DNA of 64,000 nucleotides from Escherichia phage UFV-AREG1, in sequence record KX009778; one strand, 5' to 3'. The position numbers were made by a program, and so were the translations under genes. Below the pieces are notes generated by a model. It worked only from the letters and a program-made list of their open reading frames with translations. It ran no database searches and was not told the DNA's origin. The stretch's first letter is position 1; every line of letters begins with the position of its first letter. Of the stretch, positions 30,906-43,896 are shown one piece after another.

Positions 30906-32588
30906 TTAAACCATTACAGTAAATCGACCAACTTTCTTCATTTGAAGATGCTGACCATATTCTTGTGGGTCATGGTCTTTATGCGAAATTATAAAAACAT
31001 TAGTATTTTTCATTGAATTTATAATATTAGCTACACCTTTAATACCTTCGGCATCAAATGACCCATCAAACACTTCATCGAGTATTAATGTACTAATACT
31101 AACACCAGATACAATAGAAGCAATATCACGCCAAGTAAATAAAAGAGCAATATCAATTCTTGCCTTTTCACCTTCACTGAATGAAGCATAACTAAAATCT
31201 TCACGACCACGGGATTTAATTGTCTCATTAAATTCTTCATCTAATGTAAACACATAATCCGCTTCCATTATTTTAAGATAATGGTTAATCTGCTTATTAA
31301 ATAATGGAATGTACTTTTTAATAATAGCACCTTTAATACCAGAATCTTTGAGCATATCAGTCAAAATTCCTCGGTGGTATTTTTCCATTACTAAATTAGT
31401 TTTTGTCTTAACAATTTTATCAAGTTCTTCTTGAAGCAGTGCTATTTCATCAGCATGGTCAATAAACTCAGAAGATGCTTTTTCTATAGCCGCTTTAACC
31501 TTTTTAGCTTTATCTACTGCTGCGATCAGAGATTGCTTTTTATTGCGAATATCATTTGCCAACGACTGCTGGGTTTTAATATTATCTCGGTATTCATCAA
31601 CAAGAACTTTTAAATTATCACGATGTGTTGAAAGCTGTTCAAACGAATGCGTGCATTCAGAAACTTTATCTTTAATTTTAGAAACAACTTTATCACCGGA
31701 ACTTAATTGTGACAAACAGGTTGGACATAATCCACCTTCGTGATACATATTAATGACTTTATTATACGAGTCAATTTTTGATTTAATTAAAACTGCTTCT
31801 TGACCGATTTTATTAAATGCATCAGTCGGGTCTTCATCCAAAACAATATTAACTAATCTTTCGTTAGCTTCTTCTATTTCCGATTTTAGTGTTCTAGCTT
31901 CTTTTGCCAAATCATCATACATATTTTGCAGACGAGTAAGATTGTCACCTGTTAATTTTTTCTGACGTTCAACGTTATCATTATATATTTTAATTTGTTG
32001 GATAATACTATCTTTTTTAACATCAAGCACTTGGTTTTGTGAATTTAATTCACGTATTAGTGCTTTATTAAGCTTATCCATTTCAGCTAATGTTCCTACC
32101 TCAAGCAGGTCTTCCACAAGCTTTCTTCGCGCAGGGGTCGACAAACCCATGAAAGGGGTATACCCTGCTGTACCAAGGACAACAATCTGCTTGAAACTGG
32201 CATATGACATTCCGATAAGCTGTTCAAATTCTGCTTGGAAATCTTTACTGCTGGCAGATTCATTAAGACGTGTACCGTTAACGGTGATTTCAAAAACGTT
32301 CGGTTTTTGTCCTCTTTTGATATAGTACTTTTTCTCATCATATTCCATCCACAGTTCAACTAAAAGTTCTTTCTTATTTGTGCTGTTTATTAATTGACCT
32401 TTCTTTACATCACGAAATGGCTTGCCAAAAAGCCCAAATGTGATGGCTTCTAACATAGTAGACTTACCACCGCCATTTCGTCCAGTAATAAGAGTTTTTT
32501 GAACCTTATCTAGTTGAATGTCAATAGGATTTCCACCTACTGACATTATATTTTGATACCTAACTCGGTTTAGTTTAAAATTCTTCAC
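30906..32588 (-). CDS. 46: recombination nuclease subunit gp46 (Rad50/SbcC-like ATPase)
   Basis: 560 aa as T4 gp46; Walker A GRNGGGKST, long coiled-coil middle, C-terminal signature region. Confidence 0.9.
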   Translation of the reverse strand: MKNFKLNRVRYQNIMSVGGNPIDIQLDKVQKTLITGRNGGGKSTMLEAITFGLFGKPFRDVKKGQLINSTNKKELLVELWMEYDEKKYYIKRGQKPNVFEITVNGTRLNESASSKDFQAEFEQLIGMSYASFKQIVVLGTAGYTPFMGLSTPARRKLVEDLLEVGTLAEMDKLNKALIRELNSQNQVLDVKKDSIIQQIKIYNDNVERQKKLTGDNLTRLQNMYDDLAKEARTLKSEIEEANERLVNIVLDEDPTDAFNKIGQEAVLIKSKIDSYNKVINMYHEGGLCPTCLSQLSSGDKVVSKIKDKVSECTHSFEQLSTHRDNLKVLVDEYRDNIKTQQSLANDIRNKKQSLIAAVDKAKKVKAAIEKASSEFIDHADEIALLQEELDKIVKTKTNLVMEKYHRGILTDMLKDSGIKGAIIKKYIPLFNKQINHYLKIMEADYVFTLDEEFNETIKSRGREDFSYASFSEGEKARIDIALLFTWRDIASIVSGVSISTLILDEVFDGSFDAEGIKGVANIINSMKNTNVFIISHKDHDPQEYGQHLQMKKVGRFTVMV

Positions 32589-39436: not shown

Positions 39437-39652
39437 TTAAGCCTTTTTATCAAGAACAGAATTCAGCTTGTTAGTAATTTTATCCAGACGCTCATTAAAC
39501 TCACTAGAAGATAAGCCCTTTTCTGGAGAAATTAAACTAATAACGAAAAATATAGCAATAAAAGGAATAAGGAAAATAGCTCCAACTGCCATAAACAGAA
39601 AGAATGTTACAGTTGTAAGAAAATCAGCTAAACCTTTACGAAATTTATACAT
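39437..39652 (-). CDS. small membrane protein
   Basis: 71 aa with one long hydrophobic helix. Confidence 0.45.
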   Translation of the reverse strand: MYKFRKGLADFLTTVTFFLFMAVGAIFLIPFIAIFFVISLISPEKGLSSSEFNERLDKITNKLNSVLDKKA

Positions 39653-39767
39653 ATTTTACCCTTAATTAATTAACAAAGCATTGATAAGTACTAAACTATA
39701 TTGGGAATAAAATTCTGGACCAAAATGAAAAATCATATCATTTATAGTATCCATAATGCAATTCAAT

Positions 39768-40238
39768 TTAATCATGTTTCCACACCCCATCGGTATTTGA
39801 CCAAAGTCGCTGATTATCTGATCCTCGCCACAGCTTTTTAGTCGGAAGATTTTTCTCATACTTCCCATCAATAATAACATCAACATATTTAAGCATTTCT
39901 AGTTGTTTAATATCTTCAAACTTATATCCTGTCCACAACCAAATGCTTTTATTGGGATAAAGATTTTTTACTGTTTGAACCACAGAGTGAATCACGTCTC
40001 TGTTATCAGGATAAAGAGGGTCACCTCCGGTTATAGTTAATCCTTCTATATAATCATTATTCAAACATTCAATCAATTGTTCTAGTGTTTCACCAGTAAA
40101 TGGAATACCATTTCTAGCATTCCATGTTGATTTATTATAACACCCTTCGCATTTATGCAAACATCCAGTAACGAAAAGAACTGTCCTGCATCCAGGACCA
40201 TTAACAAAGCAGCACGGGTATATTCTGTCATAATTCAT
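39768..40238 (-). CDS. nrdG: anaerobic ribonucleotide reductase activase NrdG (radical SAM)
   Basis: 156 aa as T4 NrdG; Cys cluster CRTVLFVTGCLHKCEGC. Confidence 0.85.
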   Translation of the reverse strand: MNYDRIYPCCFVNGPGCRTVLFVTGCLHKCEGCYNKSTWNARNGIPFTGETLEQLIECLNNDYIEGLTITGGDPLYPDNRDVIHSVVQTVKNLYPNKSIWLWTGYKFEDIKQLEMLKYVDVIIDGKYEKNLPTKKLWRGSDNQRLWSNTDGVWKHD

Positions 40239-41067
40239 TTATATATTTCCAATTATAGCCTTCAACACTTTTACGTTCGCCATTTAAACATTTTAAAATA
40301 TTTCCTTTGCTAGAAATATTAAAATATTTTGCTGCGTCTGGTATATAATTAAATGTTTTTAAAAGAACACCATCTTTATATGCGCCAAATAAATTAAGAG
40401 TATATTTTTCTCGAAGACGCTGATGTTTCCTTTTCATAACCTCAGGATTTGCATACGCCAACTTCAATGAATTTCTGTGTTTTTCTTTTACTTCAGGTTT
40501 TTGCATTGCTAACTTAGTTAGCCTGGAAATTTTATTTCTAACTTCGTCAGTTTTCATTGCATTTGACAAATTTAATAAAGTTTTATTTCTAACTTCAGGT
40601 TTTTGCATTGCTAACTTAGTTAGTTCTCTATGTCTTTTTCTAAAATCGTCATCCTTCCATATATTTTTCGATAATTTTGACATAGAGCGGTGAAATAATT
40701 CCTTTTCACTGGAATACAATTTAAAAATTTCATCCAATTCATCCGCATTAAATCTATCGGTATTCGAGTTTATCATTCTATGAAAGGCATAACACATTTT
40801 ACTATTGCTTGTTTTAGCTAAATAGTAATGAGCTAACGCATGGTCATAATATGACAAATTAACAATATTCCATTTATCTGTTTTATATTCAGGAAATATA
40901 GATTTGGGAAGCACGTGATGTGCTTCCGTTTTTCCTTTTATTTTAGGATTATTATAATTTTTTGTTATCAAATCAACATATGACAATAGTAAATCATTAT
41001 TTTCTTCAAATATTAAAGCTAATTTATCATTCACAAAATCGCAAGGATAAAATCTATCATAATTCAT
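40228..41067 (-). CDS. HNH homing endonuclease
   Basis: 279 aa; HNH-type motif AHHVLPKS...N...HALAHY; repeated LTKLAMQKPEV helices; inserted between nrdG and nrdD (the slot T4 mobC occupies). Confidence 0.7.
   Translation of the reverse strand: MNYDRFYPCDFVNDKLALIFEENNDLLLSYVDLITKNYNNPKIKGKTEAHHVLPKSIFPEYKTDKWNIVNLSYYDHALAHYYLAKTSNSKMCYAFHRMINSNTDRFNADELDEIFKLYSSEKELFHRSMSKLSKNIWKDDDFRKRHRELTKLAMQKPEVRNKTLLNLSNAMKTDEVRNKISRLTKLAMQKPEVKEKHRNSLKLAYANPEVMKRKHQRLREKYTLNLFGAYKDGVLLKTFNYIPDAAKYFNISSKGNILKCLNGERKSVEGYNWKYINEL
40491..40623. repeat. 31-bp perfect direct repeat inside HNH endonuclease gene
   Basis: CTTCAGGTTTTTGCATTGCTAACTTAGTTAG at 40491-40521 and 40593-40623; encodes repeated LTKLAMQKPEV helix. 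Confidence 0.8.
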
Positions 41068-42881
41068 TGGTGTTTAACCCTATGCATGATTTCTTTATTT
41101 TTACCGAGATTAAATCCGCGTTCATTCGGATTTCCCAAATAACCACATGTTCTTCTTATTGTGTTCATCTTTTTAGGATCAGTTTCTCCACAGATAGAAC
41201 AAACAAATCCGTTTTCAGTAGGAGTCATTTCATGGGTACTTCCGCATGTAAAACACTTATCTACTGGCATATTAACACCAAAATAATCTAAATACTGTGC
41301 AGCATAATCCCACACGGCCTCAAGACCTTTTAAGTTATTTTTCATATCTGGAAGTTCAACATAAGAAATGTGACCGCCGGTCGCAATGAAATGATATGGC
41401 GCTTCACGAGAAATCTTTTCAAACGGAGTAATATTTTCTTCTACTGAAACATGGAAACTGTTAGTGTACCAGCCTTTATCGGTAACATCTTTTACACTTC
41501 CATATTTTTCTGTATCAAGTTTACAGAAGCGATAACAAAGGTTTTCAGCAGGAGTCGAATATAAACTAAAAGCAAATCCAGTTCTTTCAGTCCACTGTTT
41601 AAGATGAGCATTCATTTTAGTTAAAATTTCTTGTCCAATATCACGACCGACAAGAATATTCAATTCGTGAATACCAATGTATCCTAGGGACACTGAACTT
41701 CTACCGTTTTTAAATAACTCAATTATATCGTCATCAGGTTTAAGACGAACCCCGAATGCACCTTCTTGGTAAAGAATAGGAGCAACAGTTGCTTTAACTC
41801 CTTTTAAGGAACTAATTCTACACATCAAAGCTTCAAAACATAAATCCATTCGTTCATTGAACAATTCGATAAATTTCTGTTCATTGAACTGTGTTCCAAT
41901 ATAAGAATCTAATGCGATACGAGGAAGATTCAGTGTTACAACACCAAGATTATTACGTCCATCAAGAATTTCATTACCAGTCGAATCTTTCCATACGCTC
42001 AAGAAACTACGGCAACCCATTGGAGAAACCGGAACTGAAGAACCAGTAATAGCTTTATTATTCTTAACCGAAATAATGTCAGGATACATTCTTTTGCTTG
42101 CGCACTCTAGAGCAAGCTGTTTAATATCATAGTTCGGATCGTTTTTATAAAGATTAACACCTTCTTCAACAAACATAACAAGCTTAGGAAAAATAGGAGT
42201 TATCCCATCACGACCAAGACCTTTAATACGATTTTTCAGAATTGCTTTCTGAATCATTCGTTCAGTCCAGTCAGTTCCCGTACCAAATGTAATTGTTACA
42301 AAAGGCGTTTGCCCGTTTGAACTAAAAAGAGTATTTACTTCATATTCATAAGCTTGGAATGCATCGTATACATCTTTTTCTGTTTTAGATTGAGCATAAT
42401 TCAACGCATCAGCGATTTGCCATTTTTCTGCATCCTCAATATGTTTTGCATAGGTGCGTTTAACATAAGGAGAAAGTACTTTATCTACATTAGCAAAAGT
42501 CGTTCCGCCGTATTGATGGGAAGCAACCTGTGCAGTAATTTGTGCCATAATTGCGGTAGCAACTCCAATTGATTTAGGAGTTTCAATCTGTGCATTACCT
42601 AGCTTAAATCCGTTTTCAAGCATTCCTTTTAAATCTACTAAACAGCAATTAGTAAATGGAAGAGCAGGGGAATAATCAATATCGTGGAAATGGATAATTC
42701 CGCTTTCATGCGCTTTCATAATAAAAGACGGGACCATATTTTTGGCAATGTGTTTAGACACAATACCAGCCATAAGGTCCCGTTGAGTTGGAAAAACACG
42801 AGAATCTTTATTAGCATTCTCGTTTAAAAGGTCTTTATTAGTTTTATGAATCAATCCTTCAATTTCTTTTTCAATTGTCAT
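41064..42881 (-). CDS. nrdD: anaerobic ribonucleoside-triphosphate reductase NrdD
   Basis: 605 aa as T4 NrdD; C-terminal glycyl radical motif RTCGYLG; Zn-binding Cys pairs. Confidence 0.9.
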   Translation of the reverse strand: MTIEKEIEGLIHKTNKDLLNENANKDSRVFPTQRDLMAGIVSKHIAKNMVPSFIMKAHESGIIHFHDIDYSPALPFTNCCLVDLKGMLENGFKLGNAQIETPKSIGVATAIMAQITAQVASHQYGGTTFANVDKVLSPYVKRTYAKHIEDAEKWQIADALNYAQSKTEKDVYDAFQAYEYEVNTLFSSNGQTPFVTITFGTGTDWTERMIQKAILKNRIKGLGRDGITPIFPKLVMFVEEGVNLYKNDPNYDIKQLALECASKRMYPDIISVKNNKAITGSSVPVSPMGCRSFLSVWKDSTGNEILDGRNNLGVVTLNLPRIALDSYIGTQFNEQKFIELFNERMDLCFEALMCRISSLKGVKATVAPILYQEGAFGVRLKPDDDIIELFKNGRSSVSLGYIGIHELNILVGRDIGQEILTKMNAHLKQWTERTGFAFSLYSTPAENLCYRFCKLDTEKYGSVKDVTDKGWYTNSFHVSVEENITPFEKISREAPYHFIATGGHISYVELPDMKNNLKGLEAVWDYAAQYLDYFGVNMPVDKCFTCGSTHEMTPTENGFVCSICGETDPKKMNTIRRTCGYLGNPNERGFNLGKNKEIMHRVKHQ

Positions 42882-43351
42882 TTTAAACTCTTTCTAAGCT
42901 GCTTCTTGAATGAAGCTATTAACTGTGTTTTTGTGTCAGATTCATTATATTCAAATCCTCTTTGAAGCATCTCGGCCATCATTTCCTCTTTTCCTAAACG
43001 AGAAAATTCCTTTGATTTATCTCCAACAAAGTTAGGGTGAATATTATTTTGGGTGTAATCGGATTTTAAATAAGTAAGTAAATTTTCTAACCATTCAAGA
43101 TAATCAACACCTTGTCCCTTTAAGCCAGAACGATTAAATTTGTGCTTCATTTGACCTTCTGCGGCATTACAGAGATTACAAAGCAATCCACGTACCTTTC
43201 CTGCTTTTGGTCCATTTAATTCATGGTCATGGTCGAGGTGATTAGCTTGAACATCAGGATTTAGTTCTCGTTGGCAAATTAAGCATTTACCGTTTTGTGC
43301 ATCATAAAATTTCTGTTTTTCTTCTTTATATAATTTGCCAGTCAATAACAT
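42878..43351 (-). CDS. 49: endonuclease VII (Holliday junction resolvase) gp49
   Basis: 157 aa as T4 gp49; Zn-binding CLICQ...CNLCN and HLDHDHELNG catalytic region. Confidence 0.85.
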   Translation of the reverse strand: MLLTGKLYKEEKQKFYDAQNGKCLICQRELNPDVQANHLDHDHELNGPKAGKVRGLLCNLCNAAEGQMKHKFNRSGLKGQGVDYLEWLENLLTYLKSDYTQNNIHPNFVGDKSKEFSRLGKEEMMAEMLQRGFEYNESDTKTQLIASFKKQLRKSLK

Positions 43352-43392
43352 AATAAACCCTTACCTTAAATAGATAAGGGTATTTATTATTT

Positions 43393-43896
43393 TCAAGTAT
43401 TGTAAAACATTTGATTCAATCGCTTATATTGCCGAATCTTTTGGTCAGAAAAAGAAATTTGGGTTTCAAGCCATTCAATATATTCTGCCGCAGCTTGCAT
43501 CAAATTTCCTTCATAGCCATCGTTATTTTCTTGTGCAGCTAATTTAGCTAATGCGTATGGAATACGTTCACCTTGAAAATCGGCTTTAGGCTTCTGAACA
43601 ACTTGATTAGTTCTCTCTACAACTTCTTCAATTTCACCATTTTCTACTGATTCAGTATTCCACAAGCACCAATACGTAGTTGGCTTATCGTAGATGTTAA
43701 TAATCTTTCTATCAGAAAGTTCAATTTCAATAATTCCAGTATCAGGTTCTATATCATCTTCACATTCTTTTGCAAGTTCACGAACTTTAAAGACAGTACC
43801 TGCACTAAGTTCCGGCCAGTAATTACATAGCTCTTTATCAGCACGATTAATTCTAAACCACTTATCTACTGTAATCATGTCCCATCTCCATATCAA
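43393..43896 (-). CDS. hypothetical protein (pin position)
   Basis: 167-aa ORF between gene 49 and nrdC; synteny only. Confidence 0.45.
   Translation of the reverse strand: MIWRWDMITVDKWFRINRADKELCNYWPELSAGTVFKVRELAKECEDDIEPDTGIIEIELSDRKIINIYDKPTTYWCLWNTESVENGEIEEVVERTNQVVQKPKADFQGERIPYALAKLAAQENNDGYEGNLMQAAAEYIEWLETQISFSDQKIRQYKRLNQMFYNT

Follow-up and report, generated by a model that had tools for sequence, protein, structure and literature searches.

A free-standing HNH homing endonuclease gene has, in our reading, entered the 5' end of the anaerobic ribonucleotide reductase activase gene nrdG in Escherichia phage UFV-AREG1, of which a stretch of 64,000 nucleotides (nt) from record KX009778, hereafter the window, was analysed. 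As the start of its open reading frame (ORF), which has 279 amino acids (aa), the inserted gene would use the resident ATG and first 13 codons of nrdG, and with it would come a re-coded replacement start for nrdG. We assign a probability of about 0.72 to this joint reading; homing of the element, the activity of the enzyme, the position of its cut and the immunity role of the re-coding are the parts of it that we infer. The coordinates of all features are collected in Table 1.

As shown by comparison of the two reading frames, the 279-aa ORF starts MNYDRFYPCDFVND and the nrdG of the window starts MNYDRIYPCCFVNG. At the DNA level the two starts belong to a 41-nt direct repeat (40199-40239 against 41028-41068, spacing 829) in which 32 of 41 positions (78%) are identical, with a binomial P of about 1.4e-10 at the local base composition, and among all ATG/GTG start pairs of the 64-kb window this is the only pair with shared N-termini. 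The first-pass annotation, a model's note made from the letters of the window, had already remarked that the ORF start mirrors that of NrdG, and in this it was right; moreover the similarity reaches 13 codons and one base, well past the first 5 codons to which, as it allowed, a chance likeness might be limited. Its description of the changes as synonymous holds for four of them (GAT/GAC, TAT/TAC, CCT/CCG and GTG/GTT) and fails for five bases in two non-synonymous codons, TTT/ATA and GAT/TGC, which correspond to F6I and D10C. The longest identical run between the two copies is 11-12 nt, the base before the ATG included.

Which of the two copies is the original can be read from relatives without the endonuclease, where the start is present in a single copy, as seen in the Tequatrovirus phage DalCa and in 27 IMG/VR loci; the duplicated segment in such relatives, which would have counted against the first-pass view, is thus not observed. 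DalCa represents the empty site: the TGA of nrdD overlaps the ATG of nrdG, and nrdG begins ATGAATTATGATAGATTTTATCCTTGCGATTTTGTTAATGG (MNYDRFYPCDFVNG). The leader of the endonuclease ORF matches this nrdG at 40 of 41 positions, again with the base before the ATG, and the sole difference is a synonymous GTT/GTG that is absent from other empty-site alleles (for example L008 and L010-L013). After nt 40 the ORF departs from the DalCa-type nrdG, with …AATG before the joint and ATAAATTAGC after it, and the own start of the window nrdG reads ATGAATTATGACAGAATATACCCGTGCTGCTTTGTTAATGG (MNYDRIYPCCFVNG). When the window is aligned with DalCa by blastn, two alignments are obtained which overlap on the same 41 DalCa bases, therefore the target has been duplicated; accordingly the locus spans 1601 nt with the endonuclease and 772 nt in empty-site records. 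The polarity is thus the reverse of that first proposed, in which the endonuclease carried the diverged copy: it is the endonuclease copy that matches the empty sites and the nrdG copy that has diverged. That one copy has been re-coded remains correct, since the nrdG-side copy differs from the empty-site alleles, and the footprint of an insertion with a duplicated nrdG 5' flank is also there, though it lies inside nrdG, at nt 40/41 in codon 14, and not next to it.

The same anatomy is observed in a second lineage. An endonuclease of 86% identity is found in a Klebsiella-phage lineage (the ENA contig L004, Roth78 and SmallBear), where it begins MNFDRIYPSDFVN. In the empty-site relatives L021 and L032, nrdG starts ATGAATTTCGACAGAATCTACCCTTCTGACTTTGTGAATGG, which is base for base the Klebsiella-phage leader MNFDRIYPSDFVN, and the Tequatrovirus leader MNYDRFYPCDFVN matches the empty sites L007-L013. 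As the leaders track the lineage, the leader is the recipient's own start and the re-coded start travels with the endonuclease gene. In fact nrdG restarts MNYDRIYPCCFVNG in both lineages, and because the differences between them are 7 synonymous and 0 non-synonymous, the re-coded block has co-diverged with the endonuclease under constraint at the protein level. The Klebsiella-phage lineage also has an ORF of 72-77 aa (DUF7415) between nrdD and nrdG (L004 3811-4029; L038; L045), so the captured initiation region there follows the DUF7415 ORF and not nrdD.

The extent of the re-coding was defined by alignment against ten empty Tequatrovirus sites. The element-linked changes, namely C12, A16, A18, C21, G24 and TGC28-30, leading to F/I6 and D10C, are confined to nt 12-30 of nrdG, which we call the CC block, and the polymorphisms past nt 30 assort freely. 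Positions 18, 24 and 28-29 are peculiar to the block when it is compared with both native alleles. Asp10 is invariant in all 27 endonuclease-free loci, which cover at least five lineages, some of them only 55-60% identical, and in the block it has become Cys by a swap of all three bases of the codon. Downstream of the block, native nt 31-54 are identical in the Tequatrovirus and the Klebsiella-phage alleles; they consist of TTTGTGAATGG and CCCTGGATGCAGG on the two sides of the insertion point and encode the conserved FVNGPGCR. Directly 3' of the insertion point there is a perfect palindrome with 6-bp arms (Table 1), a candidate on sequence grounds for the right half of a target site.

In a collection of about 835 records, the endonuclease occurs in 30, always at the same nrdD-nrdG junction; most of the remaining records have the 772-nt empty span and the others have SegH or T4 mobC. 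The junction between the endonuclease 3' end and the re-coded start is kept in 30 of the 30 (20 from Tequatrovirus and 10 from Klebsiella phages), seven of which were checked at the junction base by base. The re-coded block itself is found in 79 records of the phage collection, and a degenerate search for it gave no match in IMG/VR, none in GTDB genomes and one in JGI metagenomes, which is linked to SegH.

As for the protein, the HNH label given at first pass is well founded. The 279-aa ORF matches phrog_655 'homing endonuclease' (E 7e-37) and phrog_12434 'HNH endonuclease' (E 7e-15), it matches the HNH motif of T4 MobC by BLASTP (E 1e-7), and its residues H50, H51, N67, H76 and H80 are invariant across 7 homologues; in an AlphaFold model these invariant residues are predicted to sit on a strand-strand-helix unit. 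The C-terminal modules remain below the cut-off, with 21.1 bits for Pfam I-HmuI_NUMOD-like (cut-off 27) and 17.3 for NUMOD1 (cut-off 22.8). Searches against solved structures by sequence, with the single protein and with a profile, returned chance matches only, fold searches with the model were uninformative, and an NCBIfam search gave nothing useful. The body of the gene has a ratio of non-synonymous to synonymous substitution rates (dN/dS) of 0.08-0.12, that is, it is under purifying selection. Within this body, two direct repeats of 42 nt encode LTKLAMQKPEV units in the predicted DNA-binding region; in a metagenomic variant of 242 aa (P0002) exactly one repeat interval is missing, which suggests that this region can be changed through its repeats.

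Taken together with the captured leader, these data would fit the following course of events, in which every step is conditional. In a mixed infection the enzyme would cut or nick native nrdG at a site that straddles the insertion point, and the target would comprise the F-V-N-G-P-G-C-R codons together with upstream positions around the codons of P8 and D10; it would be long and asymmetric, extending over nt ~18 to ~55 of nrdG. Repair of the break from a carrier would copy the 829-nt segment, the recipient's own 40-nt nrdG start would stay as the leader, and the copy of nrdG nt 1-40 brought by the element would restore an intact nrdG. Neither junction of the carrier would then be a substrate, as the left one would join a native left half to a foreign right half and the right one a re-coded left half to a native right half. 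If the broken end paired with the re-coded copy and not with the leader, an endonuclease-free genome with a patch of re-coded sequence might result, like that of phage U5. From the sequences, the re-coding probably protects the genome of the carrier from cleavage, and the immunity suggested at first pass is thereby plausible.

Several observations weigh against this picture. For T4 MobC, the activity has not been determined and the target is unknown (Edgell et al. 2010; PMC2988022). The native nt 31-54 are unchanged in the re-coded allele, therefore any immunity must rest on positions lying 11-29 nt upstream of the insertion. Furthermore the block is found beside other endonucleases: next to SegH, of the GIY-YIG family, in an inferred number of about 45 records (for example T6, ACG-C40 and Moonvirus KM16), with T4 mobC in no fewer than 7 records (for example 215Ecol030PP), and in three genomes, U5 (L047), ESh24 (L039) and ERS-1 (L048), without any endonuclease. 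The block could thus belong to another endonuclease or be a hitch-hiking haplotype. Once U5, ESh24 and ERS-1 had been found, the idea that the block is strictly linked to an endonuclease was given up. In these three genomes a patch of 19-24 nt stands between a native nrdD 3' end and native-like sequence from nt 31 onward, which fits, as far as such sequence can tell, either abortive homing or selection for resistance. That the block is an immunity allele required by SegH was likewise rejected, as HY03 keeps an intact 276-aa SegH beside the native nrdG start MNYDRFYPCDFVNG. The HNH gene always with the block, and the block not always with the HNH gene, is the pattern expected of an immunity allele of the HNH endonuclease, and where the block stands without the HNH gene it has possibly hitch-hiked from former HNH carriers.

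Among the explanations that would do without such immunity, two concern the block itself. One of them supposes that the re-coding breaks up a perfect 40-nt repeat, so that T4-type recombination cannot delete the endonuclease gene precisely and restore nrdG. It agrees with the absence of any identical run longer than 11-12 nt between the two copies; ESh24, U5 and ERS-1, with their native nrdD 3' end and re-coded nrdG, have the structure expected from a crossover in the shared ATGAATTATGA, and an internal deletion of segH in phage PD112 along with the lost repeat interval of P0002 shows that such deletions do occur at the locus. Synonymous changes would nevertheless suffice for this purpose, and the three-base swap from Asp to Cys, kept across two lineages, is left unexplained; at nt 36 and 42 the allele of ESh24, U5 and ERS-1 departs from that linked to the endonuclease, so that simple deletion alone would not yield these three genomes; and at gene 46, discussed below, the repeat is of only 18 nt and yet has been re-coded with a whole-codon swap. 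We therefore consider a role in preventing deletion unlikely as the full explanation, though it may act together with immunity. The other explanation takes the block for the nrdG start native to a donor lineage that is unsampled, or for an allele that gives immunity to another endonuclease such as SegH; it would travel by co-conversion and have no function for the HNH enzyme. Flanks indeed move with such elements: the nrdD 3' end of SegH genomes (GKMKEMVKRVKHA, followed by the stop) looks foreign and resembles other genera, the T4 nrdG is at nt ~100-300 90-100% like the Klebsiella-phage lineage and 40-63% like DalCa, and the block is 100% identical in the SegH phage ACG-C40 and the window and is also seen with SegH in Moonvirus KM16. 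Against these stand the lack of any endonuclease-free lineage with the block in IMG/VR, JGI metagenomes and GTDB genomes; the restriction of endonuclease-free carriers to three Tequatrovirus genomes, in which the patch is of 19-24 nt; the ability of SegH to do without the block in HY03, when the HNH records have it in 30 of 30; and the Klebsiella phages, in which no SegH match was found and the block accompanies the HNH gene and has diverged alongside it. On balance a donor allele without function seems rather improbable to us.

The other two explanations concern the ORF start, and both of them are given very little credence. An endonuclease inserted next to an original nrdG, with a diverged copy of its N-terminus, would also produce two similar starts 829 nt apart, but it is refuted by the empty-site comparison, where the endonuclease copy matches the empty-site alleles and the nrdG copy does not, and by leaders that track the host lineage. 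The shared N-terminus might instead be due to chance or to a mis-called start, with the true start internal and the nrdG fragment an untranslated remnant. The start codon was assigned from sequence, and the first 10 residues are modelled with a mean predicted local distance difference test (pLDDT) score of 64, residues 1-3 being below 50. Chance is opposed by the P of about 1e-10, and a mis-called start by an in-frame fusion kept in three independent contexts, by homologues that need about 30 residues N-terminal to the HNH motif, and by the lack of any other in-frame ATG before this motif (residues 50-51): the only one ahead of it is the ATG of nrdG. In fact the distant homologues P0004, P0007 and P0008, at other loci, begin where the leader of the window ORF ends.

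Returning to an HNH gene that has captured the start of nrdG, we found the same design in two other Mob-type genes. In T4, mobC (210 aa) starts MNYDRIY on the ATG of nrdG, with a leader of 20-21 nt, and in Klebsiella phage Wolf_ER13 a 100%-identical mobC begins with the local MNFDRIY, the first ~100 nt of nrdG there being the same as in T4. The T4 nrdG is chimeric: when L003, L021 and L046 are compared, over nt ~100-300 it shares 90-100% identity with the Klebsiella-phage lineage and 40-63% with DalCa, and its final 170 nt match DalCa at 100%, so that from its sequence we read it as a rightward co-conversion tract. T4 mobC is 99-100% identical in three Klebsiella phages, and this likeness across genera points to a recent cross-genus transfer. 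The second case is a homologue of 284 aa and 36% identity (P0005; L005 3001-3930), which lies between 46.1 and gene 46 in 72 phage records. Its start, GTGAAGAATTTTAAACTT, consists of the 18 nt with which native gene 46 opens in T4, GTG start codon included, and from these the gene 46 of the window differs only by a synonymous A (against T) at nt 18; the site is empty in both T4 and the window. In the carriers gene 46 restarts ATGAAATCATTTAAACTT with an ATG start, the changes being at nt 1, 6 and 7-9, where AAT to TCA gives N3S. At empty gene-46 sites, among those records listed of the 516 matching, the alignment stops at the end of the leader. A scan for shared N-termini, which covered nt 1-47000 of T4 and misses re-coded cases such as gene 46, gave mobC/nrdG and one 4-residue match that was judged to be due to chance.

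From these cases a more general proposition can be formulated, which we hold tentatively and at somewhat less than even odds. The Mob-type HNH genes of T-even phages may share an integration strategy, inserting a few codons inside a conserved gene, taking its start, and supplying a re-coded start that includes swaps of invariant codons (D10C in NrdG, N3S in gp46). The patches would then be immunity determinants, would circulate as resistance alleles, and would show where MobC-type enzymes act, in codons about 4-20 of nrdG and codons 1-6 of gene 46.

Part of this is already known, that is, the presence of T4 mobC and segH at the junction and intronless homing with co-conversion. SegH, a GIY-YIG homing endonuclease, reportedly replaces mobC in T6, RB3 and LZ2 (Sandegren et al. 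2005). T4 MobC resembles the window gene in its nrdD-nrdG locus, its membership of phrog_655 and its in-frame start on the ATG of nrdG, and in both a C-terminal GYxWKYxxEL overlaps the new nrdG ATG; the two differ in size (210 against 279 aa), in insertion point (nt 20-21 against nt 40/41) and in the LTKLAMQKPEV repeats of the window protein. A relation of orthologues was considered and rejected, as the identity is 38% over a local match of only 60 residues around the HNH motif. Judged by sequence, the window gene and T4 mobC appear to be paralogous or independently inserted, and not orthologous. Yersinia phage PST nevertheless annotates a window-type gene as 'mobC', and the 32 records retrieved by megablast with T4 mobC share 99% identity or more and include no gene of the window type; such a label, present in several records, is misleading for annotation. 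SegH occupies the same nrdD-nrdG junction, often with the same re-coded nrdG block, but it belongs to another nuclease family, the nrdG start is not captured, and a divergent nrdD 3' end is always present.

The closest described mechanism seems to be that of mobile ORFs (mORFs) in fungal mitochondria, which create hybrid genes (atp6 of Allomyces macrogynus; atp6, atp9, cox2 and nad3 of Glomus; PMC3630166). There an endonuclease ORF lies in the 3' end of a gene, a foreign C-terminus replaces the native one, and the native terminus is left as a duplicate (PMC3630166). As in the window, the ORF is found in the coding end of the host gene together with a divergent replacement terminus, and the native duplicate is sometimes in frame. 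In mORFs, however, it is the 3' end that is exchanged, and what is left of the native sequence mostly stays silent, whereas in the window the exchange affects the 5' end and the native remnant provides the endonuclease with its start; moreover the window element is of the HNH family, not LAGLIDADG or GIY-YIG, and its host is a phage. By this analogy the window case is a mirror image at the 5' end, a likeness of mechanism and not of membership. The T4 endonucleases SegF, SegG and MobE perform intronless homing with co-conversion of flanking markers (PMC2988022). Like the window element they are free-standing, sit between conserved genes, occur sporadically and carry flanking sequence along, but the literature places them between genes and has them cleave at a distance, and the window element lies inside nrdG. 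Mob-type HNH genes within coding sequence have been reported as well: MobE splits nrdA in Aeromonas phage Aeh1, and a MobA element splits the T4 topoisomerase genes 39/60 (bioRxiv 10.1101/2022.08.31.505936). In these cases too, compensating sequence comes from the element, although the host gene stays as two polypeptides, whereas nrdG in the window is whole again through its duplicated and re-coded 5' end. No description of start capture combined with an element-borne re-coded start was found in the literature surveyed, a survey to which the full text of Sandegren et al. 2005 did not belong.

Such a design would mean that a selfish gene needs neither intron nor intein to settle in a coding sequence, as it can duplicate and re-code the host start and reuse the old one. 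In doing so the element would have changed amino acids of host enzymes at positions that otherwise do not vary, and the translation of nrdG is now downstream of, and overlapping with, the endonuclease ORF. The usual picture of free-standing homing endonuclease genes in T4-like phages is that they lie between genes and cleave a neighbour. No target has yet been assigned to MobB, MobC or MobD (PMC2988022); herein base-level insertion points and candidate recognition positions are provided for three Mob-type genes, which makes their targets directly testable.

The window belongs to a T4-like phage (Tequatrovirus), with Escherichia phage T4_ev240 as its top match (99.4% identity), and gene 49, nrdD, the 279-aa ORF and nrdG follow one another on its minus strand (Table 1). 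The TGA stop of nrdD shares the ATGA at 41064-41067 with the ATG of the 279-aa ORF, and the endonuclease ORF ends in a stop codon (40228-40230) 8 nt downstream of the ATG of nrdG (40236-40238).

Table 1. Features of the nrdD-nrdG locus and of the gene 46 site in the window (all on the minus strand)
Feature	Position	Strand	Remarks
Gene 49 (endonuclease VII)	42878-43351	-	
nrdD, anaerobic ribonucleotide reductase large subunit, 605 aa	41064-42881	-	Pfam NRDD 1e-170
ORF of the free-standing HNH homing endonuclease, 279 aa	40228-41067	-	
Leader: resident nrdG nt 1-40 (ATG, 13 codons and 1 base), start of the endonuclease ORF	41028-41067	-	
Inserted 829-nt segment	40199-41027	-	DalCa alignment overlap 41 nt, repeat spacing 829
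Endonuclease-specific body of the insert	40239-41027	-	
Internal 42-nt direct repeats of the endonuclease gene	40480-40521 and 40582-40623	-	90% identical, spacing 102
Element-borne copy of nrdG nt 1-40	40199-40238	-	
Re-coded CC block, nrdG nt 12-30	40209-40227	-	D10C codon 40209-40211
Perfect palindrome, 6-bp arms, GTCCTGGATGCAGGAC	40183-40198	-	Directly 3' of the insertion point, in the VNGPGCR codons
nrdG, radical-SAM activase, 156 aa	39768-40238	-	Pfam Fer4_12 1e-48
Gene 46 nt 1-18, GTGAAGAATTTTAAACTA; target site of a P0005-type gene, empty here	32571-32588	-	

Across 39500-43500 no Rfam family was matched at E <= 1, therefore there is no group I intron at the locus. An intron- or intein-encoded endonuclease was accordingly rejected, as nrdG is moreover restored in the DNA by duplication and not by splicing. 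The nrdD of the window is uninterrupted and without the I-TevII intron, a group I intron that is present in the nrdD of T4 and of Yersinia phage PST. Since PST carries both this intron and the window-type HNH gene, and the window only the HNH gene, the two assort independently. A sigma-70 promoter scan gave fewer sites than shuffled controls and was uninformative on an embedded nrdG promoter. By blastn and tblastn the window has no second copy of the endonuclease apart from its internal 32-nt repeats and the match of the leader to the 5' end of nrdG; in each of the HNH-type records H1-H20, a 1.6-kb query matches a second place elsewhere in the record.

Some further observations concern SegH. 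The GenBank records of the SegH/mobC study (Sandegren et al. 2005) carry no cleavage-site features. In all SegH genomes examined (including L035, L041 and L049-L051), the nrdD 3' end is divergent, with …GTPSVVPWNLGKMKEMVKRVKHA followed by the stop. The first codons of SegH, ATGCATAGG, were considered as captured nrdD codons; because the nrdD 3' end of SegH genomes aligns codon for codon with the native one, a divergent donor flank is the simpler explanation. Decaying segH genes are seen in PD112 (L040), which has the internal deletion, and in sutha (L036), where a frameshift splits the ORF, and both have the re-coded nrdG start. Finally, 215Ecol030PP (L037) is a mosaic of a SegH-type nrdD end, the native last 12 nt of nrdD, T4 mobC and the re-coded nrdG start, and its joint sits at the 9-nt identity ATGCATAGG.

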